From the NCBI GenBank assembly GCA_965603285.1, contig CBFDCK010000001.1:14152-78151 (forward strand): a DNA stretch of 64,000 nt. The letters are read 5' to 3'. The position numbers and the translations under genes were made by a program. This document shows, one piece after another, positions 46,886 to 63,682 of this stretch (its first letter is position 1; every line of letters begins with the position of its first letter). Below the pieces are notes generated by a model that saw only the letters and a program-made list of their open reading frames with translations, was not told where the DNA came from and made no database searches. The stretch comes from an uncultured bacterium. GTDB lineage: Bacteria > Chloroflexota > Anaerolineae > Anaerolineales > UBA4823.

Positions 46886-47023
46886 CGGCGTACATTCTAA
46901 GAGCAAGTGTGCGAGTCTAAACGGTTTGCTAACTACCAGCGTCCAGATATGCTGATCAGGTATTGTGTATGGGGTGTAAGAATGTGAACTCGCATAGAAA
47001 TTATGAGCGACGGAGATTGTGTT

Positions 47024-48322
47024 ATGAGCTATGAAATTGTCCTGGTTCCTGATAATGGGACAAAAGTATCCATAGAAAACGGCAATCTGAACGTGCCCGA
47101 TAATCCAATTATCCCATTCGTAGAAGGGGACGGCACAGGCAGAGATATCTGGAAGGCTTCTCAGCGTGTGTTTGATGCAGCTGTGGAGAAAGCTTATCGT
47201 GGGCGGCGAAAGATCTTTTGGATGGAAGTATTTGCTGGGGAAAAAGCTTTTTCTAATTATGGTTCCTGGCTGCCCGATGAGACCATAAACGCTTTTCGGG
47301 AATTTCGAGTGGGGATTAAGGGACCTCTGATGACCCCAATTGGTGGGGGCATCCGCTCGTTGAATGTCGCTTTGCGTAAGGCTTTGGACCTGTACGTCTG
47401 CCAACGACCGGTGCGCTATTTTGCAGGTGTGCCGTCGCCAGTGAAGCATCCGGAATATGTTGATATGGTGGTCTTCCGCGAGAACACGGAAGATATCTAT
47501 GCCGGTATTGAATTTGAACTTGGAACCGCTGAAAGCCAGCTTTTTAAGGATACTTTCAGGGAGCAATTCCCGGACGAGTACGCCAAGATGCGCTTTCCGG
47601 ATACAGCTGGGATCGGTCTCAAGCCGATTTCAAAGGAAGGTACGGATCGCCTGGTTCGAGCGGCAATCCAGTGGGCGTTGGACAATGGCCGCCGCAGCGT
47701 GACGTTGGTACACAAGGGCAACATCATGAAATTCACGGAGGGTGCCTTCCGAATGTGGGGCTATGAGTTGGCTGAGGTAGAGTTTGAAGACCTGGTATAC
47801 ACCTGGAAGCAATGGGAACGCACTAAAGACGAAGTGGGTGAAGAGAAAGCTAACGCCGAGCAGGATGAAGCCCTCAAAAATGGAAAACTGCTCGTAAAGG
47901 ATGTGATCGCGGATATCGTTTTCCAGCAGACGATCACCAGGGCGCGCGAATTTGATGTACTGGCGACCATGAATTTGAACGGCGATTACCTCTCAGATGC
48001 GTTGGCAGCTCAAGTGGGCGGAATTGGCATTGCTCCCGGTGGAAATATAAATTACATGACCGGACACGCAATATTTGAAGCCACGCACGGCACGGCGCCC
48101 AAGTACGCTGACCAGGATAAGGTCAACCCGGGTTCGGTTATCTTGTCTGGGGAGATGATGTTTTGCTATATGGGCTGGACCGAAGCCGCGGATATAATCC
48201 TCCAAGGGATGGAGGGAGCCATCGCTGCCAAGACCGTTACGTATGATTTTCACCGCTTGATGGACGACGCCTCGCTTCTTAAATGCTCGGAGTTCGGCGA
48301 CGCTGTGATCAAGCATATGTAG
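47024..48322 (+). CDS. icd: NADP-dependent isocitrate dehydrogenase
   Basis: 'EGDGTG', '[15 protein letters not shown]', 'RENTED', 'NLNGDYLSD', '[10 protein letters not shown]'. Confidence 0.96.
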
Positions 48323-48492
48323 GTTTGGTTTTTGATGGTGGTAAAAATTTAATTGAGCCGTTTTCCTTAAAGGGCAGGTAAGTCACAACAGATAGTCAAC
48401 CTTAACCAGCCGACCAACCTTAATCAGCTGTCCGGGCTCCCACGACCGGCGTATCCATAAGACAATGACAATAGAAGCCGCATTGATAGAAT

Positions 48493-48519
48493 AAAGCCCC
48501 CCGGGAATGGGGGGCTTTT
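48493..48519. terminator. bidirectional intrinsic terminator between icd and the bc operon
   Basis: aaagcccccc-gggaat-ggggggcttt. Confidence 0.75.
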
Positions 48520-48616
48520 GCAATACTGAGGAGGACAAGCGCAGTGCGATGCTTCTGTAATGAAGTTTCTAAGCGATGGGGTAGTAGTGTCAGCGTGCCA
48601 GTCCTCTCAGTTATCG

Positions 48617-49822
48617 CTAAGGTGATGGTGTCGGCGTGACCGTGGGTAGGGTCTCCTCTGAAGGTGGTTCTGCGCTGCCGGTGGAAGCGGCAGTCGCATC
48701 GTCAACTGTGTTCGGTGCACCGCCGAGCACCCAGCGCTCAAAGATATCTATCAGTTCAGGCTTGAGCGCCTTAGTGGGGGGCATGGGTCCACCGGCCTCA
48801 ATCTCTTCACGGTGGATCATACGGATCAGGTTGCTGGTCAGATCACCGGGAATGACGTTCGGAGCGTAGTCGCCGCTCTGCATAACCTCATCGTAGGTCG
48901 CCATGAAGTACTCCCCGTTCTTCTTGCCGGGGCGGTGGCAGGAGATACAGTAGCGTTTGATAATTGGGGCGACGTGCACTTCGTACGAAGGCACCTCGTC
49001 GGAAGCGAGCTCAGGAATAGCGGACGCTTGGGCGGCTTCTGCGGGGATTTCGATACGGTCGTCCCAGGTATAGCGCATGAAAGCCACGATTGCTTCGATT
49101 TCTCCCGGACCAAGCTCTCCGGCGTACGCCTTGCTAAATGGGGGCATCCCCAACGACCCTTGTCCGAATCCGATGATATTGAAGAAGGTTTCGTCGCTGC
49201 GAGTGTACATTTCATCCTGACTGCTTATGGACTTTACTTCAACACCTTCTAGACCTTCCACACCTATAATTTCACCCCCTTCACCATCAGCGCCGTGGCA
49301 TTCTACGCAGTAGAGACCGTAAAGTTCTTCGCCTGCTACGATCTTCTCGGAAATTGTGCCGGCAAGCGTGCCGCTCTCTTCCTGTGCTGGTGTGGTCACA
49401 ACCGCTACGACTGTCAGGGCAACCATTCCAATTACGATGACTGTCATTATCGAGATGGCGAGTTTTCGTTTGCGCCAGAAGCGATTCGGGTTGCGATCGA
49501 AAAATGGTAACAGGATCAGCGCCAGAACGGCTATTGAAGGGATAATTGCGGTTCCAACCCATTCGAGTTGACCCGGAAAATATTTGAGCATTTGGAAGAG
49601 AAATAAGAAGTACCATTCCGGACGTGGAATGTAGGATGTATCGCTGGGGTCGGCTTTCGGTTCTCCGGCAACGCCCACGAATATAGCCAACCCGATCAGC
49701 AGCACGAAAAGACCAAACGAGACAATGATGTCCTTGTATACGATGTCAGGGTAGAACTTGACACCCTTCTGCTTCTCTTTTTTATACTTCTTGTAATACT
49801 CTTGCTTTTGTTCTTCGTTCAC
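48617..49822 (-). CDS. Rieske/cytochrome b complex subunit IV fused to a diheme cytochrome c (QcrC-like)
   Basis: 'RPEWYF', 3 TMs, 'CVECH' and 'CISCH'. Confidence 0.88.
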   Translation of the reverse strand: MNEEQKQEYYKKYKKEKQKGVKFYPDIVYKDIIVSFGLFVLLIGLAIFVGVAGEPKADPSDTSYIPRPEWYFLFLFQMLKYFPGQLEWVGTAIIPSIAVLALILLPFFDRNPNRFWRKRKLAISIMTVIVIGMVALTVVAVVTTPAQEESGTLAGTISEKIVAGEELYGLYCVECHGADGEGGEIIGVEGLEGVEVKSISSQDEMYTRSDETFFNIIGFGQGSLGMPPFSKAYAGELGPGEIEAIVAFMRYTWDDRIEIPAEAAQASAIPELASDEVPSYEVHVAPIIKRYCISCHRPGKKNGEYFMATYDEVMQSGDYAPNVIPGDLTSNLIRMIHREEIEAGGPMPPTKALKPELIDIFERWVLGGAPNTVDDATAASTGSAEPPSEETLPTVTPTPSP

Positions 49823-49834
49823 TGCGATGCTCCT

Positions 49835-50494
49835 CTAGTCGTCCTCTTTGGGGATGGACGAAATTCCTAGACGAACGATCAGATACATATGGATACTGAT
49901 GGTCAGAACGAGTACTGCGGGCAGGATCCAGATATGCGCAGAGAAGAAGCGCGCCAGGGTTACAGCACTGATATCCATGCCGCCTCTCAGCACCCTCATA
50001 ATGAAAGTGCCGATGAATGGTACCGTGGCAGCGATCTCGGTGCCAACCGTGGTGGCCCAGTAGGCGCGCTGATTCATGGGCAGGAGGTAACCCGTAAAAC
50101 CCATCCCTAAGGTTACCAGTAAAAGAATTACACCTGTGACCCAGGTGAGCTCGCGGGGATATTTATATGCGGCGCAGTAGAAGGTTCGCAGCATGTGCAT
50201 AAATACGAAGATGACCATCAGTGAAGCACCCCAGTGGTGTATGCCGCGAATCAGCCACCCAAAGTCGACGCCGTTCATGATGTAAAGGATGCTGTCGGCA
50301 GCATGGTCTGGAGTAGGAACGTAGTAAATAGTAAGAAAGATGCCCGTGATACCTTGAACCACGAATAAAAAGAGACTGGCGCTTCCGAGTGTGAACCACC
50401 AGTTCACTTTTGGAACGTCGCGGTCTAATACGGTGTCGTATACTGTTTTAATACCCAGGCGTTCGTCCAGCCAGTTGAGAACTTTTGCTGCCAT
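49835..50494 (-). CDS. cytochrome b6-like (split cytochrome b, QcrB-like)
   Basis: 'YYVP', 'RGIHHWGAS', 'HMLR', 'GFTGYLLP', 'RFFSAH', 'IHMY'. Confidence 0.92.
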   Translation of the reverse strand: MAAKVLNWLDERLGIKTVYDTVLDRDVPKVNWWFTLGSASLFLFVVQGITGIFLTIYYVPTPDHAADSILYIMNGVDFGWLIRGIHHWGASLMVIFVFMHMLRTFYCAAYKYPRELTWVTGVILLLVTLGMGFTGYLLPMNQRAYWATTVGTEIAATVPFIGTFIMRVLRGGMDISAVTLARFFSAHIWILPAVLVLTISIHMYLIVRLGISSIPKEDD

Positions 50495-50496
50495 GA

Positions 50497-50982
50497 TTAA
50501 CCTTCCACTATGCGGATGAACAACGTATCGTCTTCAACTTTTGTTTCATATTCGAATAGGGGACGTGGGGGTGGACCAGCGACCACCTCTCCATCGATAT
50601 TGAAGCCTCCATCGTGACAAGGACAGAAGAAAATTTCTTCATCTTCAATCCAGTTCACACGGCAGGCGAGATGCGTGCAGATGTTGGAGTATGCTTTGAC
50701 CAGATCTTCGGTCTCACGGTATATATAAACCCCATAACTGGACACCGTTTTTTCCCAGCCGTTGATTTTGCTGCGCGTAAAACTGAACAGGGTAGGAAGA
50801 CCGATCGGGTAATTCTCGAGCGGTCCGGCGGACACCCATGCTTCTGATTTGCTGATTTTTAATGCGGGAGAGAGCAGATATCCGATTGTGGGCAGACCAA
50901 TGACAACACCCATGATTGCTCCAAGCGCGCCGATGGTTATTTTTACAAATTCGCTGCGACTTATATGAGGTGATTTTGCCAT
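50497..50982 (-). CDS. Rieske [2Fe-2S] subunit (QcrA-like)
   Basis: 'CTHLAC', 'CPCHDG', 'GPPPRPL', N-terminal TM. Confidence 0.93.
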   Translation of the reverse strand: MAKSPHISRSEFVKITIGALGAIMGVVIGLPTIGYLLSPALKISKSEAWVSAGPLENYPIGLPTLFSFTRSKINGWEKTVSSYGVYIYRETEDLVKAYSNICTHLACRVNWIEDEEIFFCPCHDGGFNIDGEVVAGPPPRPLFEYETKVEDDTLFIRIVEG

Positions 50983-51271
50983 GAAGTGATTTGCTCCTGT
51001 TTGGAGAGGCGGCTTTTGGTAAGTAAATAAATTATAATGGTATATTGCTTGTCTGTTATGAGGATATCTGGAACTATTAACGTATGAGTATTGTCACTTT
51101 CCATTGAGAAACGATAAATGCGATAATATTGGAGGATGGGTTTCAGGATGGATGTACTTGCGGCACTTGAATTGGACGAACTTAGCATTCAATTGTGCCG
51201 TTTCAACCCCGGCTAGTATTTTTTATTTATCGTGGATCACGAGTCGCATAAAAAATTCACAGGAGGCGCTT

Positions 51272-51658
51272 ATGGCTCTTAAGAGAAATGTTGGCTTGAA
51301 GGGCTTAAGGTACCGCGGTGGTGGTCCGATGTTAGCGTGGTCGTTTCACAGGATTAGCGGGCTGCTAATGGTCGTCTTTGTGGGTACCCATATACTGGCT
51401 TCATTCTTCATGCAGCAGACCGCCAGTGATCTCGCGACCAATCTCAATATCATCTACGAGTCGCTGTATTTCCAAATATTGATTTATTTTGTTGTTATGT
51501 TCCATGGTTTGAATGGATTACGTATCCTGATACTGGATACCTGGCCGCAGCTCCTGGAATACCAACGCGAGGTGACCTGGCTGCAGTGGTTGGTTTTTAT
51601 TCCCGTATACGGTTTAACGGTCTTCATCATGATCCAGTACGCCGCCAGCAGTGGTTAG
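51272..51658 (+). CDS. sdhC: succinate dehydrogenase cytochrome b subunit
   Basis: 'FHRISG', 'FHGLNGLR'; AGGAGG RBS before ATG 51272. Confidence 0.85.
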   Translation: MALKRNVGLKGLRYRGGGPMLAWSFHRISGLLMVVFVGTHILASFFMQQTASDLATNLNIIYESLYFQILIYFVVMFHGLNGLRILILDTWPQLLEYQREVTWLQWLVFIPVYGLTVFIMIQYAASSG

Positions 51659-51679
51659 AAGGGAGAAGGAGATGGCGAC

Positions 51680-52102
51680 ATGAGCACTCGAACGGCTCCT
51701 CAACTCGGTTTCAGTTTTGAATACTTGATGTGGATTTTCACCCGCATCTCGGGGCTGGCATTGATCCTGCTGATGTCATTTGGGATGGCAGCGGCGTTCT
51801 GGATGGGCGCACGCACCCAGACAGACGTTGGGACGTTGATGCGCTGGACATTTTTCCCCAACCCCAATCACGTGGTCAATAGTGATATACCCGACGTAAC
51901 GCTTGGATGGGCTACCGCCTACTGGCAGATTATGCAGATACTGATTGTATTCTTCGCTGCCGCACATGGTATAAACGGGGCGCGTGTAGTGATCGAGGAT
52001 TACATCGGGCGATCTTGGTGGCGACCATTCTGGCGCGGATTGTTGTTCCTGATCTGGATGTTCATTCTCATCGTAGCCGTATATGTTATTTTAGCTTCCT
52101 AA
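51680..52102 (+). CDS. sdhD: succinate dehydrogenase membrane anchor
   Basis: 'RISG', '[13 protein letters not shown]'. Confidence 0.85.
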
Positions 52103-52118
52103 CCACAGGAGTGGCTTT

Positions 52119-53912
52119 ATGACCGAATTTCATCAATATGACATCTTAGTCGTAGGAGCAGGAGGTGCCGGTCTAATGGCAGCCTTATACGCTTCAAAAA
52201 CCACCAGTACCGCTGTGATCAGCAAGCTGTATCCCACTCGTTCGCACACTGGTACTGCCCAGGGCGGTGTGGGCGCAGCCTTGGGAAATGAGGGGGAAGA
52301 TCACCCCGAATGGCATACCTACGATACTGTTAAGGGCAGCGATTACCTGGGAGACCAGGATGCCATTGAGTTCATGTGCCAGGAAGCAGTGCAAACGGTC
52401 TACGAGTTAGAGCACATGGGATTACCGTTCTCGCGAACTCCCGAAGGTCGCATCGCTCAACGACCTTTTGGCGGTCACACCAACAACGTAACTGGAAAAC
52501 CTGTGCCGCGAGCTTGCTACGCCGCCGACCGTACAGGGCATATGATCCTGCAAACCCTGTACCAGCAGTGCATCAAGAACAATGTCACCTTCTTTGACGA
52601 ATTTGAAGTCTTGGATTTATTGATTGTCAACGGTGCTGCCGCCGGTGTGGTTGCCCTGGAAATATTGACCGGGGAAATGCATGTTTTCCATGCCAAATCA
52701 GTAATATTTGCCACAGGGGGGCACGGACGAATCTGGGATATCACCTCCAACGCCTACACCTATACCGGGGATGGAGTAGCGGTTGCCCTACGAAGAGGAA
52801 TTCCGGCTGAAGATATGGAGTTTTTTCAATTCCACCCGACCGGGATTTATAAAATGGGAATTCTGATCACTGAAGGTGTGCGCGGAGAAGGCGGAGTCTT
52901 GCTCAACGATACGGGAGAGCGCTTCATGGAGCGCTATGCTCCCACTGCCAAGGACTTGGCCTCGCGTGATGTGGTCAGCCGTGCTATGTATATCGAAATG
53001 CAGGAAGGGCGCGGTATCGGCGGGAAGCGTTATCTATACCTGGATGTGACACCTGAAATTGTCAATAAATATGCCGCCGAAGATGGTCGCACACGTACGG
53101 ACGGCTCTCCATACGTCGTAACGGCGGAGGAGATACTCTCAAAACTGCCGGATATCGTTGATTTCGCTCGCACTTATCTGGGCGTAGATCCGGTTTCTGA
53201 ACCGATGCCTGTGCAGCCCACGGCTCACTACGCGATGGGTGGTATCCCGACAGATAAGTTGGGTCAGGTGGTAATTGACGAGCATAACACCGTTATGCCG
53301 GGTTTTTACGCCGCCGGTGAAGCAGCCTGCGTTTCAGTGCATGGAGCCAATCGTCTGGGCACAAATTCGCTGGTGGATATCATCATCTTCGGTAAGTATT
53401 CTGGTCTGCAGGCGGCTGAGTACGCCAACGGCGTCGATTTCCAGGAATTGCCCGCGGATGCGGATGATTTCGCCCGCCAGCAGTTGGATGCGATTTTGAA
53501 TTCCACGGGCACCGAGAACGCTGCCGATATCGCTAACGAGATGAAGAGCGTCATGTTCGATCATGTGGGCGTCTTCCGCACAGAGGATGGGATGGCGCAG
53601 GCGCTCGAGAAAGTGCGCGAGCTGCAGGAACGCCTGAAGAACGTGAATAGTACGGACCTCGGCAGCACTTTCAACACCGAGTTGATCGATATCTGGGAGC
53701 TGGGTAATTTGCTGGATCTAGCGGAGGTCACAGCGGTCTCGGCGCTGGCTCGTAAAGAGAGTCGCGGCGCGCACGCCCGGGAGGATTATCCCAAACGGGA
53801 TGACGCGAACTGGATGAAACATACCCTGGCATGGATAAAAGATGGCGAGGTTGAGCTAAGCTACAAACCGGTAGTGATAACCAAGTACGAGCCCAAGGAA
53901 CGCGTTTACTAG
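52119..53912 (+). CDS. sdhA: succinate dehydrogenase/fumarate reductase flavoprotein
   Basis: 'GAGGAG', '[10 protein letters not shown]', 'QFHPTG', 'HYAMGG', 'HGANRLG', 'ESRGAH'. Confidence 0.95.
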
Positions 53913-53928
53913 GCTGCGGGAGACCCTT

Positions 53929-54633
53929 ATGCAGGTAACACTCAAGATATTTCGTTACAATCCCGAAGAGGATAAGAAGCCACATTACGAAAGCTACAAA
54001 TTGGAGGCCGAACCGACCGACCGGGTGCTTGATCTGCTGGAGTATGTCAAAAGCTATCATGACGGTACTCTGTCCTTCCGGCGTTCCTGTGCTCACGGTG
54101 TCTGCGGCTCGGATGCGATGCGCATCAACGGTCTCAACCGCCTGGCTTGTAAAGTGCTGATTAAAGAGTTGGGTGCCAAAAAGATCACTATCGAGCCGAT
54201 CCTGGGAATGCAGGTCATCAAGGACCTGATAGTGGATATGGAGCCTTTCTTTGAGAATTTCCGCATGGTAATGCCTTACTTTGTAAACGACGAACCGCCG
54301 CCCAAGCGCGAACGTTTGCAGAGTCAGGAGCAGCGCGAGCGCTTCGACGACACGACCAAGTGCATTCTGTGTGCCTCCTGTACAACCTCCTGCCCATCAT
54401 TCTGGGCAAACGAAAAATATCTCGGACCGGCGGCGATCGTGACCGCGCACCGTTTCATCTTCGACAGCCGCGACCGGGCGGGGGCAGAGCGTCTAAAGCG
54501 ATTGAATGACGCCTTCGGCGTGTACCGCTGCCACACGATCTTTAACTGCACGGTCGCCTGCCCACGTGAAATCGAGGTCACACGCGCGATTGGGGAGGTG
54601 AAGGTAGCCATCGCTACGGGGAAGATTGATTGA
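53929..54633 (+). CDS. sdhB: succinate dehydrogenase Fe-S subunit
   Basis: 'SCAHGVCGSD', 'CILCASCTTSCP', 'CHTIFNCTVACP'. Confidence 0.95.
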   Translation: MQVTLKIFRYNPEEDKKPHYESYKLEAEPTDRVLDLLEYVKSYHDGTLSFRRSCAHGVCGSDAMRINGLNRLACKVLIKELGAKKITIEPILGMQVIKDLIVDMEPFFENFRMVMPYFVNDEPPPKRERLQSQEQRERFDDTTKCILCASCTTSCPSFWANEKYLGPAAIVTAHRFIFDSRDRAGAERLKRLNDAFGVYRCHTIFNCTVACPREIEVTRAIGEVKVAIATGKID

Positions 54634-54840
54634 GCTTAATATCACGCAAAGACATAAAGCACGCCGAAGATAATTTTATCGTTGTTGAGTGATAAATCCT
54701 ATAAGTGATCCGCCGGGGTCTGTGACCCTGGCTTTCTCTTATTATGGGAGTTATTCGGGGATCGCAAACCCCCTACAAGCGTTTTTTCTTTGCGATATTT
54801 GTGGTTTTGCGAGGTCCTATCTGCTATAATTGCCATGTAA

Positions 54841-54913
54841 GCCCCAGTAGCTCAATGGATAGAGCAAGGTCCTCCTAAGACCGAGGTTGTGGGTTCAACT
54901 CCCGCCTGGGGCA
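54841..54913 (+). tRNA. tRNA-Arg(CCT)
   Basis: Acceptor GCCCCAG/CTGGGGC, anticodon loop CTCCTAA, GGTTCAACTCC; extended -10 TGcTATAAT at 54822-54830. Confidence 0.93.
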
Positions 54914-54925
54914 TCGGGTTTATAA

Positions 54926-54963
54926 GAACCACTCACGGATATCGTGGAGTGGTTCTGCGCTTT
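54926..54963 (+). terminator. hairpin downstream of tRNA-Arg
   Basis: agaaccactc...gagtggttct stem. Confidence 0.5.
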
Positions 54964-55110
54964 AATTTGCTTTGAATGTATATTCGCTCGCATTCCCATG
55001 CTGATTGATCCCTTACCAGCGTTTGCCTCTCCGTTAATTTTTCTCGAATTTTATCGGATATCGTCATTAGTTTTTCCATGATCTGTGGAGTAACGATAAA
55101 TTTATTCTGG

Positions 55111-55212
55111 TTGGAATACCCCGTAGCTTGCTACGGGGGTTCCAACGTTTTAGCAAAATCTGTACCCGAAGGGGCAAAATACCGTAATACGCCGTCCGCT
55201 TGCGGCGGGGAT
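55111..55212. mobile_element. pair of GCTTGC-centred hairpins resembling IS200/IS605-family ends (non-autonomous remnant)
   Basis: ttggaataccccgtagcttgctacgggggttccaa and atacgccgtccgcttgcggcggggat; no transposase between them. Confidence 0.45.
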
Positions 55213-55370
55213 AGGAATTTTGAAGATTTTGCCAGTTTATTTTTGGATTTTGGGTGAATTGGTGGTGACTTCACAAATTCTTCATCATTTACCTATGCAT
55301 TCTTCAAAAGTGTGAATTAAACTTGTATCACTAAAAAACAAACCGTGATATCTGTACGCAGGAGTATTCG

Positions 55371-56771
55371 ATGAAATCATCTTTACCAGATGATCAATCC
55401 GCTAATATGTTTTCCCGTATGCGCCATTCCCTTGCACCGAATGAAGTGCCCGTTGACGACCGGGGGCGTATGCGCATGGTGATGAACAACCTCATTTTGC
55501 ATATCCACCCTTCTAAAGTAAATGTGCGCTCACTGCGTTTTACATATACATGGGGTTTAGGTGGGCTTTCAGTTATGTTAACCATGATTCTTGCGATGAC
55601 TGGGGTGCTCTTACAGATGAACTACACTCCTAGCCCTCCCCAAGCTTACCTGGATATTATCAACATGAATACCAATATTTGGTTTGGGGAGCTGATTCGC
55701 AATTTACATCACTGGTCAGCTAACTTGCTCGTTGTTGTCTCGGTGCTGCATCTGTTGCGGGTGTTTTTCACCGGTGCATATCGCCCGCCCAGGGAAATGA
55801 ACTGGTTGATCGGAGTGGCAATGTTGCTGCTGGTGCTGGGGGCTAACTTCACCGGCTATCTGCTTCCCTGGGATCAACTGGCCTTCTGGGCCATCACCGT
55901 TGGGACCAGCATTATTGAATACATCCCCATCATCGGACCCGGGCTCAACAGGCTGCTGCTTGGCGGGCCAGAAGTTGGCGCACCAACATTGCTCAACTTC
56001 TACTCACTTCATATCAGTTTCATCCCTATATCGATTGTTGCATTGATGTCCTATCATTTCTGGAAGGTGCGCAAAGATGGCGGTCTGACGATTCCCAAAA
56101 AACCCGGGGAAGATCTCCCCTCACGCCCTGAAAAGGTCACCACAATCCCTCATCTGGTGCGTCGAGAGTTGGTGTTTGCTCTGGTCTGGCTGGCTATTAT
56201 GTTGTTTTGGGCCATGCTGGTCCCCGCTCCCTTGGAGGGTATTGCTAACCCTGATGTTAGTCCTAACCCTGCCAAAGCACCCTGGTATTTCCTCGGATTG
56301 CAGGAATTGATGCTTCACTTCCATCCGTTGGTTGCAGCTATTATCATTCCTACCTTGGCTTTGCTAGCCCTCGCCCTGTTGCCATTTTATGATTTCTCTT
56401 CCCACAGTGTAGGTGTTTATTTCCGGTCCTGGCGGGGTCGTTCTCTCGCTTTTTTATCAGTTGGATTAGCCCTGGTCGTTACACCTGTCTGGGTGTTATT
56501 CGATGAATTTGTTCTCAATTGGGCAGGCTGGCTGCCCAGCTGGCCCAGCCTGATATCCAATGGTCTCATCCCCTTCGCGGTTGTCTTGCTGGGCATCCTG
56601 CTTCTGGATGAGGTTATCCAAAAAATTTTCACGACTGACCATGAAGAACGCGTGTTGTTTTTATTCATATTCTTGTTTACAGCATTATTGGTGCTCACGA
56701 CAATCGGAATATTTTTCCGCGGTCCGGGCATGGAGCTTTTTTGGCCGTGGGATATGCCGGTTCACGTGTGA
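55371..56771 (+). CDS. cytochrome b (fused b + subunit IV) of a second Rieske/b complex
   Basis: 'RNLHHWSA', 'HLLRVF', 'FTGYLLPW', 'FYSLH', 'YHFW', 'KAPWYF'. Confidence 0.9.
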   Translation: MKSSLPDDQSANMFSRMRHSLAPNEVPVDDRGRMRMVMNNLILHIHPSKVNVRSLRFTYTWGLGGLSVMLTMILAMTGVLLQMNYTPSPPQAYLDIINMNTNIWFGELIRNLHHWSANLLVVVSVLHLLRVFFTGAYRPPREMNWLIGVAMLLLVLGANFTGYLLPWDQLAFWAITVGTSIIEYIPIIGPGLNRLLLGGPEVGAPTLLNFYSLHISFIPISIVALMSYHFWKVRKDGGLTIPKKPGEDLPSRPEKVTTIPHLVRRELVFALVWLAIMLFWAMLVPAPLEGIANPDVSPNPAKAPWYFLGLQELMLHFHPLVAAIIIPTLALLALALLPFYDFSSHSVGVYFRSWRGRSLAFLSVGLALVVTPVWVLFDEFVLNWAGWLPSWPSLISNGLIPFAVVLLGILLLDEVIQKIFTTDHEERVLFLFIFLFTALLVLTTIGIFFRGPGMELFWPWDMPVHV

Positions 56772-56851
56772 TGGAGGACAGTCAGTGTGGTGCCGACCAG
56801 GGTCTGGAAACTGTCTTGATCACCACACTCACCAATAATGAAGAGGTACTT

Positions 56852-57343
56852 ATGTCGAAACAAAACAACGATGCATTGATATCCCGGAGCGACTTTTTAA
56901 AGACTGCCTGGAGCGCGGCAGGAATTATAGCCGCATTGGAATTCGGAGGGCTCTCTCTTTTTTACATGCAGCCCCGCTTAACCGAAGGAGAATTCGGGAG
57001 CATTGTCACCGTCGGTCCGGTGGATGATTACCCCCCAGGCTCTGTCACTCATATCCCGGATGGGCGTTTCTATCTTTCCCGGCTGAAAGATGGAGGTTTT
57101 CTGGCCGTTTACCAGCGTTGCACGCACCTCGGTTGTAATGTTCCCTGGGATCAGACGCAGGGTAAATTCACCTGTCCATGCCACAACTCGCAGTTCACTG
57201 CTGATGGTGAGTTGCTTACTCCCCCAGCTCCACGACCTCTGGATATCTTCCCTATCTTTATCGAAGACAACATTATCAAAGTTGATACTGGAAATCCAAT
57301 CGTACGTCAAAACTTTGACCCGTCGCAGGTGGTGTACTCATGA
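56852..57343 (+). CDS. Rieske [2Fe-2S] subunit
   Basis: 'CTHLGC', 'CPCHNSQF', 'PAPRPL'; GAGG RBS before ATG 56852. Confidence 0.92.
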   Translation: MSKQNNDALISRSDFLKTAWSAAGIIAALEFGGLSLFYMQPRLTEGEFGSIVTVGPVDDYPPGSVTHIPDGRFYLSRLKDGGFLAVYQRCTHLGCNVPWDQTQGKFTCPCHNSQFTADGELLTPPAPRPLDIFPIFIEDNIIKVDTGNPIVRQNFDPSQVVYS

Positions 57344-57402
57344 CTGATAAACAAATTACTGACAGATAAATTACTGACAAACAAATGACTGACAAACAGA
57401 TT
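57343..57402 (+). repeat. 15-bp tandem repeat x4 (encodes TDKQI-like units)
   Basis: actgataaacaaatt actgacagataaatt actgacaaacaaatg actgacaaacagatt. Confidence 0.85.
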
Positions 57403-58569
57403 ACCTCCCCCAAACATCCGGATATTGAACTCTTTGAAGTTCTGATTGGTCTTCTTGCTACCCTCATGATCGCAATCGGGGTACTGGTTTATTTTTTTGG
57501 TGAGCCGGACCGGCTGGAAAAAGCTCAGGCTGCCCAGCTAGGTTCTGAGCTTGACGATGCCATGACTCTCTACGCCGAGAATTGTTCGGTGTGTCACGGT
57601 ATCGCCGGCGAAGGTATTGGTTCCATGCCACCCCTTGAGGACACTGGTCTGCGTGAATCCGATCCTGACACCCTGTTTAAGATCATCGGACGTGGTTTGT
57701 ACGGCACATCCATGCCCGCCTGGAGTAAAGAGGACGGCGGTCCGCTCAGCGATTACCAGATCGATGAGTTAGTGGTTCTCCTCCAAAATGGGAACTGGGA
57801 AGAGACTCATGACCGGGTTGTCAATCTGGGGTTAGCTTCCTTGATCCCTTTTGTTACCGAACCTGATCCGGAAATTTTGGATGGGTTAGCTGGTATCCCC
57901 GATGGAGAACTGCTCACTCAAGGTGTCACTCTTTATGCCCAGGAATGTGTTGCCTGTCATGGCGCCGATGGATTGGGCACCTCTCTGGCGCCTGCCTTGA
58001 ATGATCCTCAGGTGCGCGCCAAATCCGAGGATGAATTACGGCGAATTATTCTTTATGGCGTGCCCAGCACACTCATGGCTGGGTGGGAAAACGCTCTCAA
58101 TACAGACGAGATAGATGCCTGTGTTGCTCTCATTACCCAATGGGATCAGATTCCCACAGGGGCTATCCCTGCGCCAGATATACCGGTTCCCGTGACTGAA
58201 GAATCCCTGGTCCTGGGGGCTGACCTGTATGCGGCTAACTGCTCGCGCTGCCACGGTCCCGATGGACAGGGAACACCGCGCGCCTCGTCTTTGAATGTCA
58301 AAGGTTACCTGGAGGAGACCAGCGACCAAGCCATCCAGCAGATCATCACACTGGGTGTGCCAGACACTGCCATGCCTTCTTGGGGTGACCGCATGACAGA
58401 TACTGAAATAGGGGCAATTGTGGGTTTCATTCGCTCGTGGGAACCTACCGCACCGGAAGTGGCTGAACCAGCCCGCGGTGGAGGTGGTCCCTGGTGGAAA
58501 ACTGAAGGCGGCAGCCTTGGAGGACGCTCTGGAGGTGGTCGGGGGCGTGATGGTAGTCATTCGCCATGA
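57385..58569 (+). CDS. membrane-anchored triheme cytochrome c
   Basis: N-terminal TM; 'CSVCH', 'CVACH', 'CSRCH', each followed by a Met-containing 'MPAW/MAGW/MPSW'. Confidence 0.9.
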   Translation: MTDKQITSPKHPDIELFEVLIGLLATLMIAIGVLVYFFGEPDRLEKAQAAQLGSELDDAMTLYAENCSVCHGIAGEGIGSMPPLEDTGLRESDPDTLFKIIGRGLYGTSMPAWSKEDGGPLSDYQIDELVVLLQNGNWEETHDRVVNLGLASLIPFVTEPDPEILDGLAGIPDGELLTQGVTLYAQECVACHGADGLGTSLAPALNDPQVRAKSEDELRRIILYGVPSTLMAGWENALNTDEIDACVALITQWDQIPTGAIPAPDIPVPVTEESLVLGADLYAANCSRCHGPDGQGTPRASSLNVKGYLEETSDQAIQQIITLGVPDTAMPSWGDRMTDTEIGAIVGFIRSWEPTAPEVAEPARGGGGPWWKTEGGSLGGRSGGGRGRDGSHSP

Positions 58570-61137: not shown

Positions 61138-62931
61138 TTAGATCATTGGATCCATCATTAAAGCGGGATGCGCGCTTGCTTCCATATGGGCTAGGATTTC
61201 TTCCTCGGTCAGTGCGTTCTCCTCGGTGGCGATCATATCCACAAATCCAGGCACCCCCGCTTCGTTCGCGAGCGTCTCCAGCACAGGACGCAGTTCCTCC
61301 CTCAGGGCGCGATTCATCCACACAATGCGCCGCCAGCCTCCTTCGGCTGAGATGAATTTATCCCTTTGCAAAGCCCGCTTGCTGTGACCAATGAAGCCGG
61401 GAACGGGAGCACCCGCTCCGACTATCTCATATAGCATCGCCCAGTCCATCCCGCTTGGCGTCATGCCATCGTATGTATGTTCCATTATCATCACACCGTT
61501 GGATATCGGGAGCATGGCTGTGATGCACTCGAAATCGCCGCATGCAGAGCCGGGGTCTTGCATCATGCTGTACAGGCTATAGGCTGTTAAGACACCGCCC
61601 GATTCTTGCTGCACGATCTGGTTGACACTCTCCCATTGACCGAGGTTGGCATCTATTAAACCGCTTTTTTTGACCGCTTTGTTAGGACCGACAGGGCGGA
61701 TAATGACCGCCGCGCGCGCATCCATCCAGTCTACTGCACCGCAAACTCCGGGATGCTCCGGGCTAATGACGCAGAGATGCCCGCCAGCGATGGATTGACA
61801 AAGACTGCAGGTGTAGAAGGTATCTACGTCTTCATCAGTTAGGCTGATTAAGCGTTTATCCCGCTGTTCATAGATTGCTTGAGCTCTTTCTGTGATGATC
61901 GGTATTTGCGTCGGTTCGGTATAAATGGTGATCTGAACACGGCTGAGGATATTGCCAAATTCATTGTGATATCGAGCGTGTAGAATCTCTCCCAGGTGGC
62001 GTAAGTGTAGACCTTTATCAATGGCTTTTTGGGTGATGCGCAAGGTAACAATCGTCCGCTGCCCTCGATGTACGACTCCATCTACATCGTTGATCATCGT
62101 CTCGATTTGCCGCTCCAGGACTGGCTCGAAGTCCGGCTGCATCTCCCGCCCGCTGATTTCGATCAGCATTGCGTAGGATTGGTTGCCGCTCAAACCAGAA
62201 TCCAGGTCTGGTCCGACAACCATTATCTGCCCGTCGATGATCTTTTCTCCCGTTTCGGTCAGTTCAACACCGGCAAGACATGCACCGCAGGCTTCATCGT
62301 GCACAACCTGGCCAGAGAAATCAGAGCTATATGCCACGGGCAATTCCGGTATTGGGACGTTAATCTGCAAGCCCCGCTCCTCGATGCCAATCTGGACGAT
62401 GTCGGAGAGATCAACCCCACCGATGGCGGGGAGGTACTCAGCCGAAATCTCCCAGGTTTCCACAGAGGCTGGCAGATCGGCGTTACTCAGCAAAGGGCAG
62501 CCCAGGGGTGTGGCAGCCTGTGCCAGCGCCAAACGGTCAGGTGTCGGTTCGCCCAGCAGCAAGGTGATACCGGGCAACCGCTGGCGGGCGTAGCGCAGCG
62601 CATCTTCGGGGCTATCGGCATTGCCAAAGATCTGTGCCATACGAGCGATGAATCCCAGGGCACACTGCAGGTCAAAAGGCACAATGCCAGAATTCCAACC
62701 AAGCGGCAGACCAGCTTCTCGCAGAGCAGCGGTCAATATATCTTCGGTGACAAAAACCACAACTTTCCGTTGGGTCAGCGACTCGATTATCGTTGAAGCC
62801 GCTACAGCATCATCGCCCATTAGCAGTGTATAGCCGGAAGTCGAACCGTCGATGAACCCAATCCCCTGGTGCCGCACATCGGCATCGTCAGCCAAAGCTG
62901 CGGCGGAAAAAATATCGATAGAATCTGACAT
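61138..62931 (-). CDS. divergent acetyl-CoA synthase (AcsB/CdhC) homolog
   Basis: 'GREMQPDFEPVLERQI', 'LTDEDVDTFYTCSLCQS..HLCVISPEHPGVCGA', 'ACGDFECI', 'KFISAEGG..RIVWM', 'HPALMMDPM'. Confidence 0.88.
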   Translation of the reverse strand: MSDSIDIFSAAALADDADVRHQGIGFIDGSTSGYTLLMGDDAVAASTIIESLTQRKVVVFVTEDILTAALREAGLPLGWNSGIVPFDLQCALGFIARMAQIFGNADSPEDALRYARQRLPGITLLLGEPTPDRLALAQAATPLGCPLLSNADLPASVETWEISAEYLPAIGGVDLSDIVQIGIEERGLQINVPIPELPVAYSSDFSGQVVHDEACGACLAGVELTETGEKIIDGQIMVVGPDLDSGLSGNQSYAMLIEISGREMQPDFEPVLERQIETMINDVDGVVHRGQRTIVTLRITQKAIDKGLHLRHLGEILHARYHNEFGNILSRVQITIYTEPTQIPIITERAQAIYEQRDKRLISLTDEDVDTFYTCSLCQSIAGGHLCVISPEHPGVCGAVDWMDARAAVIIRPVGPNKAVKKSGLIDANLGQWESVNQIVQQESGGVLTAYSLYSMMQDPGSACGDFECITAMLPISNGVMIMEHTYDGMTPSGMDWAMLYEIVGAGAPVPGFIGHSKRALQRDKFISAEGGWRRIVWMNRALREELRPVLETLANEAGVPGFVDMIATEENALTEEEILAHMEASAHPALMMDPMI

Positions 62932-62947
62932 AATTACTCCAGGTATG

Positions 62948-63448
62948 TCACCCGTTCAGTATTTGCTGCCAGCACGCAGGACGCAGGTTAAACATGGGTA
63001 CCCGTTTCTGGTATTCACGGTAGGCGTTGCCAAACTTACGGATCGCTTCCGGTTCCTCCACCAGCTTGATCATCACTACCATAAAGAGCATCTCTAACGG
63101 AGCGATGAACATGATAAAGGAGGGCGAGCCGAGGATCAAGGCCACCGACCAAGGGAAGAAAAGAAGCCCAAAGTGCATGGGGTGGCGCATACAACCATAA
63201 ACACCTGTGATGACCAGTTTATTAGTCTCCAGGCGGGGAATATCGCCTTCACGGCCCATACGTGCCAGCAAACGACCAGTGTGCCGGCTGGCGCGCATGA
63301 CGAGGCGCAGCAGCAATACCCCAACAACCAGGGTCACCAAGTGGAAAGCAGGGTTGACGAACAGTGCGTAGAACCAGTGCCAGTCCAGCCAGATTCCCAG
63401 AGCGCCGCCACCGATCAACATAAGTACCCAGATCAACATTCGCACCAT
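62948..63448 (-). CDS. isoprenylcysteine carboxyl methyltransferase/PEMT family membrane protein
   Basis: 'LVITGVYGCMRHPM', 'EEPE..RKFG.AY.EY..RVP'. Confidence 0.85.
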   Translation of the reverse strand: MVRMLIWVLMLIGGGALGIWLDWHWFYALFVNPAFHLVTLVVGVLLLRLVMRASRHTGRLLARMGREGDIPRLETNKLVITGVYGCMRHPMHFGLLFFPWSVALILGSPSFIMFIAPLEMLFMVVMIKLVEEPEAIRKFGNAYREYQKRVPMFNLRPACWQQILNG

Positions 63449-63451
63449 GGC

Positions 63452-63682
63452 TTAATTTCCTCCCGATTTGCGCGCCGCCAGCCAGCCGATGTTCCTAAAC
63501 GCACCGACGACGGGGTCTACGTGAGAGACCAGGATGTCAGCCCAGACCCGCGTTAGGGCTACGTCTTCGCCAAGCGCTGAGCCAAGAATCATGTCAGTAT
63601 AGTAGGTTCCGACAAAGGAGTAGACACTTCTTTTTAGCACATTTAACGAATACTTGGACATCGCTTTATTATTCTCCTTCAT
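63452..63682 (-). pseudogene. N-terminal fragment of an AIR synthase/HypE-related protein
   Basis: 'ILGSALGEDVAL', 'SHVDPVVGA..NIGWLA', then the ORF stops after about 76 aa. Confidence 0.6.

Follow-up and report, generated by a model that had tools for sequence, protein, structure and literature searches.

The minus strand of the window, the 64,000-nucleotide stretch of Anaerolineales DNA analysed here, carries near its end a gene for a protein of 597 amino acids derived from acetyl-CoA synthase (ACS), the C-C bond-forming enzyme of the Wood-Ljungdahl pathway (Table 1). The frame (61138-62931) is free of stops, as the original prediction had it. Pfam assigns residues 198-342 to CdhC and residues 354-597 to ACS_CODH_B_C; PF18537 (CODH_A_N), which is matched in the canonical AcsB of the same genome, has no Pfam match in this protein. 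The N-terminus had also been described as shorter than that of bacterial AcsB, and this is borne out by the lack of PF18537 and by the best local alignments to solved bacterial ACS chains, which begin at query residues 13-16, corresponding to chain residues 114-142. The N-terminal ~125-135 residues of bacterial AcsB are absent, and residues 1-125 of canonical AcsB gave no tblastn match in 27 loci carrying related genes. An AlphaFold2 model (80-row alignment; pLDDT 89.7) has the three-domain ACS fold, superimposing on 3git with a Z score of 51.6 and an rmsd of 2.6 Å over 405 aligned residues, and the ACS match runs along the whole length; a search of the ESM Atlas returned ACS-named clusters only. 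The protein scores 594.6 bits against NF040764 (NCBIfam; cut-off 800) and 317.4 bits against TIGR00316 (cut-off 355.95), below the threshold in both cases, the former deficit being due in part to the missing N-terminus. Most of the contact between domain A1 and CODH is borne by the N-terminal helical part, which is the part absent here. In acetogens A1 is described as the CODH-binding domain (PMC11474084).

Table 1. Coordinates of the ACS-derived gene, its altered and retained sites, and its upstream neighbours in the window
Feature	Positions	Strand	Basis
597-aa ACS-derived protein: Rossmann half of A1, A2 and A3	61138..62931	-	Pfam, alignments, AlphaFold2 model
[4Fe-4S] ligand motif Cys375-x2-Cys378-x8-Cys387-x9-Cys397 (Moorella C506/509/518/528)	61741..61809	-	Cys in all covering subfamily sequences
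Cys464-Gly465-Asp466 (TGC GGC GAT) in place of Ni-binding Cys595-Gly596-Cys597	61534..61542	-	alignment
Ile381 in place of alcove/gate Phe512 (QSF to QSI)	61789..61791	-	I 113, L 1, gap 1; canonical Phe 172/172
Glu277 in place of His408 (His386 of C. autoethanogenum)	62101..62103	-	E 112, D 3 of 115; canonical His 172/172
Thr296 in place of Trp427 (Trp405 of C. autoethanogenum)	62044..62046	-	T 89, S 18, W 0 of 115; canonical Trp 172/172
Glu502, new conserved carboxylate; invariant Gly (G633) in canonical ACS	61426..61428	-	E 110, D 4, gap 1
Retained gating-helix Arg20, Gly23, Ile24 (R142, G145, I146); Val149 to Ile27	62851..62874	-	alignment; roles as described in PMC11474084
Cys215-Cys218 (CxxC in A2)	62278..62289	-	85/115 members
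Cys145	62497..62499	-	105/106 covering members
ICMT/PEMT-type membrane methyltransferase	62948..63448	-	PF04191; 16 bp upstream of the gene; homologue in 15/27 loci
76-aa ORF	63452..63682	-	no Pfam match at 1e-5

Among the best 120 of 302 results of a homologue search, 117 clusters are 60-100% identical to the protein (among them three that are the window's own copy or nearly identical to it), and the next are at 40-42%. Fifty-seven of the 117 are exactly 597 amino acids long, and the frames are intact at 60-93% identity. The sources are named as Chloroflexota, Anaerolineae or Anaerolineales, and the database labels on the members read acetyl-CoA synthase. Twenty-three sampled members form one clade on a long stem (FastTree); by this tree and the alignment, the gene belongs to a monophyletic, mostly Chloroflexota subfamily in which Cys-Gly-Asp (CGD) is fixed. 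No description of a CGD or Ni-cysteine-less ACS subfamily was found in full-text searches, a scope outside which subscription papers and bioRxiv supplements lie.

The median dN/dS of the subfamily is 0.154 (range 0.09-0.27; 84 pairs with 0.05<dS<1.5 from 21 distinct genes), compared with 0.129 for canonical Anaerolineae AcsB (90 pairs, 35 genes), and it is lowest in domain A3 (0.124). The original prediction had allowed for a CGD motif unique to this genome and evolving under relaxed selection. That case is excluded by the value of 0.154, which indicates purifying selection, and by the presence of Asp in 113 of the 115 aligned clusters. Relaxed selection, stops or frameshifts, and private substitutions, by which a pseudogene would be recognized, were all absent. 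The gene is rare: it occurs in one of 61 genomes in a set of relatives and in two of 401 in a sample of the class, and at ≥65% identity in six of 80 GTDB loci, one of which is in a Desulfobacterales bin. A DNA pattern for the Fe-S motif, strict enough for divergent forms to escape it, matched 46 of 401 genomes when applied phylum-wide, and among the matches listed QSI was found only in the window's gene.

Column statistics were taken from one alignment of 115 subfamily clusters (the 117 minus two self copies) and 172 canonical AcsB sequences from fetched loci. Moorella numbering was transferred through alignment to Carboxydothermus hydrogenoformans chains plus an offset, and checked against the residues named in PMC11474084 and bioRxiv 10.1101/2024.08.05.606187; G633, F628, L527 and R524 are offset labels only. 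The four [4Fe-4S] cysteines reported in the original prediction are present, and its two substitutions, CGC to CGD and QSF to QSI, proved to be features of the subfamily at large. In ACS, Cys597 bridges both Ni ions. Its column holds Asp in 113 of 115 sequences, Asn in one and a gap in one, with Cys in none, compared with Cys in 172 of 172 canonical sequences; for this reason CGD cannot be put down to chance or sequencing error. The preceding columns are Cys in 113 (Val in two) and Gly in 114 (one gap). The GAT codon of Asp466 is two changes away from TGY. It is fixed in 21 of 21 genes, yet three of 57 invariant two-codon columns are equally fixed, and we rejected it as a nucleotide-level signal.

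Two further fixed changes, which the original prediction missed, fall by alignment at acetyl-CoA contacts: His408 has become Glu or Asp and Trp427 has been lost, each in 115 of 115 sequences. In acetyl-CoA-bound ACS of Clostridium autoethanogenum, Trp405 is stacked on the CoA adenine, His386 contacts acetyl-CoA and is the proposed base deprotonating the CoA thiol, and Arg383 is suggested as a stabiliser of the acetyl group (bioRxiv 10.1101/2024.08.05.606187). The last of these (R405), invariant in the 172 canonical sequences, is kept in the subfamily, as are H419, C595-G596 and the equivalent of G399. The CO alcove is described as comprising five residues, G145, I146, V149, F229 and F512 (PMC11321310), of which G145, I146 (Ile or Leu) and F229 are kept, V149 is mostly Ile and F512 is Ile in 113 of 115, so that the full alcove set is not present. 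Altogether the subfamily has a different residue fixed in 14 columns; five of these swaps create carboxylates (D204, E277, D401, D466 and E502), one removes a carboxylate, and one adds an aromatic residue, Trp497. Domain A3 is conserved overall, with 97 of 232 columns at ≥95%. Cysteines absent from canonical ACS were also observed, a CxxC pair in A2 (Cys215-Cys218) and Cys145 (Table 1), and these might constitute an extra metal or redox site.

The gene had been described as standing alone with no acs genes adjacent. The second part of the description holds: homologues of CooS, AcsC, AcsD and AcsV are lacking from the 11 kb around the gene (L005) and from all 27 subfamily loci (228 kb in total; many are short and some are probably near-duplicates), and a distant AcsE-like pterin-binding gene occurs in one of the 27. 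The first part does not, since the gene lies in a recurring non-acs cassette. Its commonest neighbour is the ICMT/PEMT-type membrane methyltransferase of Table 1, followed by a fusion of LarC-like (Pfam Ni_insertion) and TrmO parts (11/27 loci), an OYE/FadH-type flavoenzyme and a class I SAM methyltransferase (10/27 each), an alpha/beta hydrolase and an MFS transporter (8/27 each), and MBL, NUDIX, xanthine-dehydrogenase-like and CGGC genes (6/27 each). No neighbour is universal (the maximum is 15/27), and at one locus of 8 kb, L127, all ten core genes are missing. The order of the cassette is shuffled among genomes and partly broken in G433, a genome of another order, as would be expected of a mobile island. 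At the G433 locus (L235:8967-13448) the MFS gene forms a fusion with the C-terminal portion of the SAM methyltransferase, and the OYE gene is split, while the subfamily gene is intact.

Near the window's gene, the LarC-like/TrmO fusion lies past the window end, ~4.4 kb upstream (L005:7462-8703, minus strand). It joins a TrmO/TsaA domain and a short His-rich stretch to a LarC-like nickel-insertion protein that is degenerate, and has 165 homologous clusters at E≤1e-20. We considered it as a dedicated maturase and rejected it as an exclusive partner because it is commoner than the ACS-like gene (15 of 401 class genomes versus two) and its LarC part is degenerate. In one protein, P0358, the N-terminal part of this fusion is joined to a CGD-containing piece of the ACS-like protein, which is probably a deletion junction inside the cassette. 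The 76-aa ORF, between an alcohol dehydrogenase gene and the ICMT-type gene, is common to five close loci; by eye we take it to resemble the start of an AIR-synthase-like gene. A scan for promoters and terminators gave seven and two sites, compared with 4.4 and 3.4 in shuffled sequences, which is chance level.

A canonical acs operon was sought elsewhere in the genome, and a complete cluster is present on contig C2: cooS, an acsB-acsD fusion with CGC, acsC, a RACo/AcsV gene and acsE. The canonical AcsB is 37% identical to the 597-residue protein. In six further genomes (G061-G065 and G433) cooS adjoins a CGC acsB in every case, with acsD and acsC in five of the six fetched stretches; canonical cooS-acsB with CGC is thus found in all seven genomes examined. 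An ACS match occurs in 198 of 401 class genomes and in 30 of 36 genomes of the same family and, because about half of the class has such a match, this co-occurrence is weak evidence of dependence. The fused acsB-acsD gene (L003:11096-14782, minus strand; G000:C2) specifies 1228 amino acids with a Pro/Ala/Glu-rich linker, and open frames near this length were seen in G010, G028, G020 and G062-G065. The window itself holds, at 47003-58569, genes for isocitrate dehydrogenase, succinate dehydrogenase-like genes and two Rieske/cytochrome b/cytochrome c sets (by eye), alongside the full acs operon found elsewhere in the genome.

These data bear on the suggestion that the gene is an inactive paralog giving rise to false Wood-Ljungdahl calls. 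The ACS labels of the subfamily are in its favour, as is a published survey rule that accepts as ACS any COG1614 HMM match of 350-762 amino acids at E≤1e-30; the description of the rule mentions no motif check for ACS (PMC13240472), and it would probably count the 597-residue protein. However, since seven of seven genomes carry canonical cooS-acsB, the pathway call would be right anyway unless the bin were incomplete, and false calls from the CGD subfamily are a minor risk limited to such bins. ACS homologues nevertheless need a motif check of the sort that CODHs already get in surveys (PMC13240472).

The word paralog also needs amendment, since the trees put the subfamily outside the host's own AcsB clade and it is probably a xenolog. 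Maximum likelihood analysis of A2-A3 (IQ-TREE, LG+G4) groups it with Desulfobacterota/Planctomycetota-type AcsB (support 96/95), and a mixture model with the long-branched P0145 and P0133 left out recovers the same grouping (support 97). The GC3 of the gene is 0.59 compared with 0.44 for the canonical acsB of the same genome, and G433 holds a close copy (82% over the C-terminal 220 residues); both observations fit transfer. The gene was thus likely acquired rather than duplicated, though not certainly so: the stem is long, and the test against a clade shared with Anaerolineae AcsB gives only weak rejection (p-AU 0.035).

Loss of the Ni cysteines recurs across the wider family. A set of 149 other 50%-identity representatives (P0121-P0269) includes 105 that cover the Ni site, of which 37 have lost one or both Ni cysteines, although many of the 37 are singletons that may include errors and P0152 may be an alignment shift; the Fe-S quartet is kept in almost all. 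At least ten changes are forced on the FastTree tree, and the replacement motifs in other lineages (SGY, SSL, IGA, FGG) are non-ligands. P0133, which nests among the Anaerolineae AcsB sequences, is a second origin of CGD (grouping it with the subfamily in one CGD clade is rejected at p-AU 0.0005), and it also lacks one cluster Cys.

Very probably the gene is maintained and yet, to judge from its sequence, does not specify an acetyl-CoA synthase. Acetyl-CoA synthesis is not expected because the protein has lost the bridging Ni thiolate, the residue proposed as the base for CoA, the Trp that stacks on the adenine, and the N-terminal region, and the normal enzyme is present. The original prediction had offered a neofunctionalised ACS-fold Fe-S protein as one reading, and the fixed Asp and low dN/dS support it, the loss of ACS activity being what we infer from sequence. 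The explanation we prefer, tentatively, is that this offshoot of ACS, under purifying selection, is an Fe-S protein other than an ACS, with a metal site that is re-liganded and rich in carboxylates. In peptides, Ni can be chelated by a Gly-Asp backbone, with two amide nitrogens and the side-chain carboxylate as ligands. A metal with Cys464 and the carboxylate of Asp466 as ligands would be bridged by Cys378 to the predicted [4Fe-4S] cluster, and Glu277 might be a further ligand or an acid/base, since it stands at the place of the His facing the proximal Ni on A2/A3 closure; Glu502 and Asp401 are candidates for the same site. The retained gating helix (R20, G23, I24, F102) would close A1 over the site, and the protein would work without CODH docking. 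The substrate of the rebuilt site would be small and other than CoA, and the reaction most likely a metal-centred methyl/thiol transfer or a redox step, carried out beside the SAM methyltransferases and oxidoreductases of the cassette. Any specific reaction type is at best improbable; as substrate, a methylated thiol, amine or sulfonium compound is weakly suggested by the many methyltransferases of the cassette and by the acidic/aromatic character of the cleft.

Counting for a re-liganded site, His408 and Gly633 are replaced by Glu or Asp only (115/115, and 114/114 covered), C597D arose twice (P0133), and the LarC-like/TrmO fusion and the CGGC gene recur in the cassette at the frequencies given above. 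Against it, two members read Val-Gly-Asp and one Cys-Gly-Asn, and the conserved Asp466 need not be a ligand, as A3 is highly conserved overall. In its fullest and so far unlikely form, the proposal would be a natural variant of the A-cluster, a [4Fe-4S]-coupled site of Ni or Fe in which a Cys thiolate bridge has become an Asp carboxylate and the CoA cleft has been rebuilt by acidic and aromatic residues (E277, D401, W497, Y501, E502) for a cationic methylated substrate. If true, it would take the ACS fold for the first time beyond acetyl-CoA metabolism, to an enzyme of organometallic or methyl-transfer chemistry, with C597D having arisen convergently at least twice.

The main alternative, and a distinct possibility, is that the protein is a nickel-free Fe-S scaffold, a pseudoenzyme with the [4Fe-4S] cluster only and with Asp466 in a structural role. 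It would then sense redox state, carry electrons or bind a partner, which might be the corrinoid Fe-S protein (CFeSP) of the host's canonical acs operon. The ACS scaffold can persist without a second metal site, as the 37 of 105 representatives with arbitrary replacements elsewhere demonstrate; the two Val-Gly-Asp members and the canonical cooS-acsB in all seven genomes fit this as well. However, the co-occurrence carries little weight in a class and family where ACS matches are so frequent, and genes for CFeSP adjoin the subfamily gene in none of the 27 loci. A re-liganded site is favoured over such a scaffold because Cys464 is kept (113/115) and the new residues at or near ligand positions, including 277 and 502, are restricted to carboxylates.

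Rather improbable is a monomeric variant that is still active as an ACS, its distal site being N2SO and its bridge a carboxylate, and that makes or cleaves an acetyl-thioester, perhaps of a non-CoA thiol, with CO taken from solution. The host has CFeSP genes and two CooC-like ATPase motifs, the retained R142, G145, I146, F229, R405, H419 and C595-G596 would suit such an enzyme, and the distal Ni is described as having a mainly structural role (PMC12289521). Yet His408, Trp427, Phe512 and Cys597, each invariant in 172 of 172 canonical sequences and the last of them the bridge between both Ni ions, are all replaced, the NF040764 score is below the cut-off, and each genome examined already has the canonical enzyme. 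Decay of a spare acsB copy without current function is highly improbable and, for the subfamily, refuted by dN/dS and the fixed alignment columns: the patchy distribution, the broken cassette genes of G433 and the deletion fusion P0358 speak for it, but all 84 pairs lie at 0.09-0.27, the frames are intact with 57 of 117 clusters at exactly 597 residues, and the swaps are fixed rather than random.

We know of no other natural reaction of the ACS fold. Some Anaerolineae maintain by selection, beside the normal enzyme, a second ACS copy which likely has another job at a rebuilt acidic metal site. With C597D, H408E, W427T and F512I, the subfamily is a natural experiment on the contributions of the distal Ni, the thiolate bridge and the CoA cleft.

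Of known relatives, the other Ni-site-less homologues (Omnitrophota SGY, P0126; Chloroflexota SSL, P0134; Eubacteriaceae IGC/IGA, P0168 and P0182) likewise combine the ACS fold and the Fe-S quartet with a changed Cys-Gly-Cys, and they too have often lost the CoA Trp. They have separate origins and mostly non-ligand motifs, and most of the near-full-length ones keep the N-terminus; the CGD subfamily, unlike them, keeps Cys595, has a carboxylate fixed at 597 and travels with its own cassette.

Bacterial AcsB (Moorella thermoacetica 1OAO/1MJG/3GIT, Carboxydothermus hydrogenoformans 1RU3/7ZKJ, Clostridium autoethanogenum 6YTT/9G7I; NF040764) is 37-42% identical to the 597-residue protein and shares with the subfamily the three-domain fold, the [4Fe-4S] Cys quartet, C595-G596, R142, G145, I146, F229, R405 and H419. 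The subfamily differs in C597D, H408E/D, W427T/S, F512I and the new Glu at G633; it lacks the first ~130 residues (PF18537), falls below the NF040764 cut-off and lies in an acs operon in none of 27 loci. It is thus excluded from AcsB by its Ni motif, CoA contacts, N-terminus and operon. Archaeal CdhC (the ACDS beta subunit; 9C0S_E; TIGR00316) resembles the 597-residue protein in being without the bacterial N-terminal helical region, and the two have A2 and A3 in common (Z 36.7). The protein described here, however, keeps ~190 residues of A1 (the Rossmann half and gating helix) that CdhC is without, has CGD rather than Cys-Gly-Cys, scores below the TIGR00316 cut-off and takes its place in the tree among bacterial AcsB.
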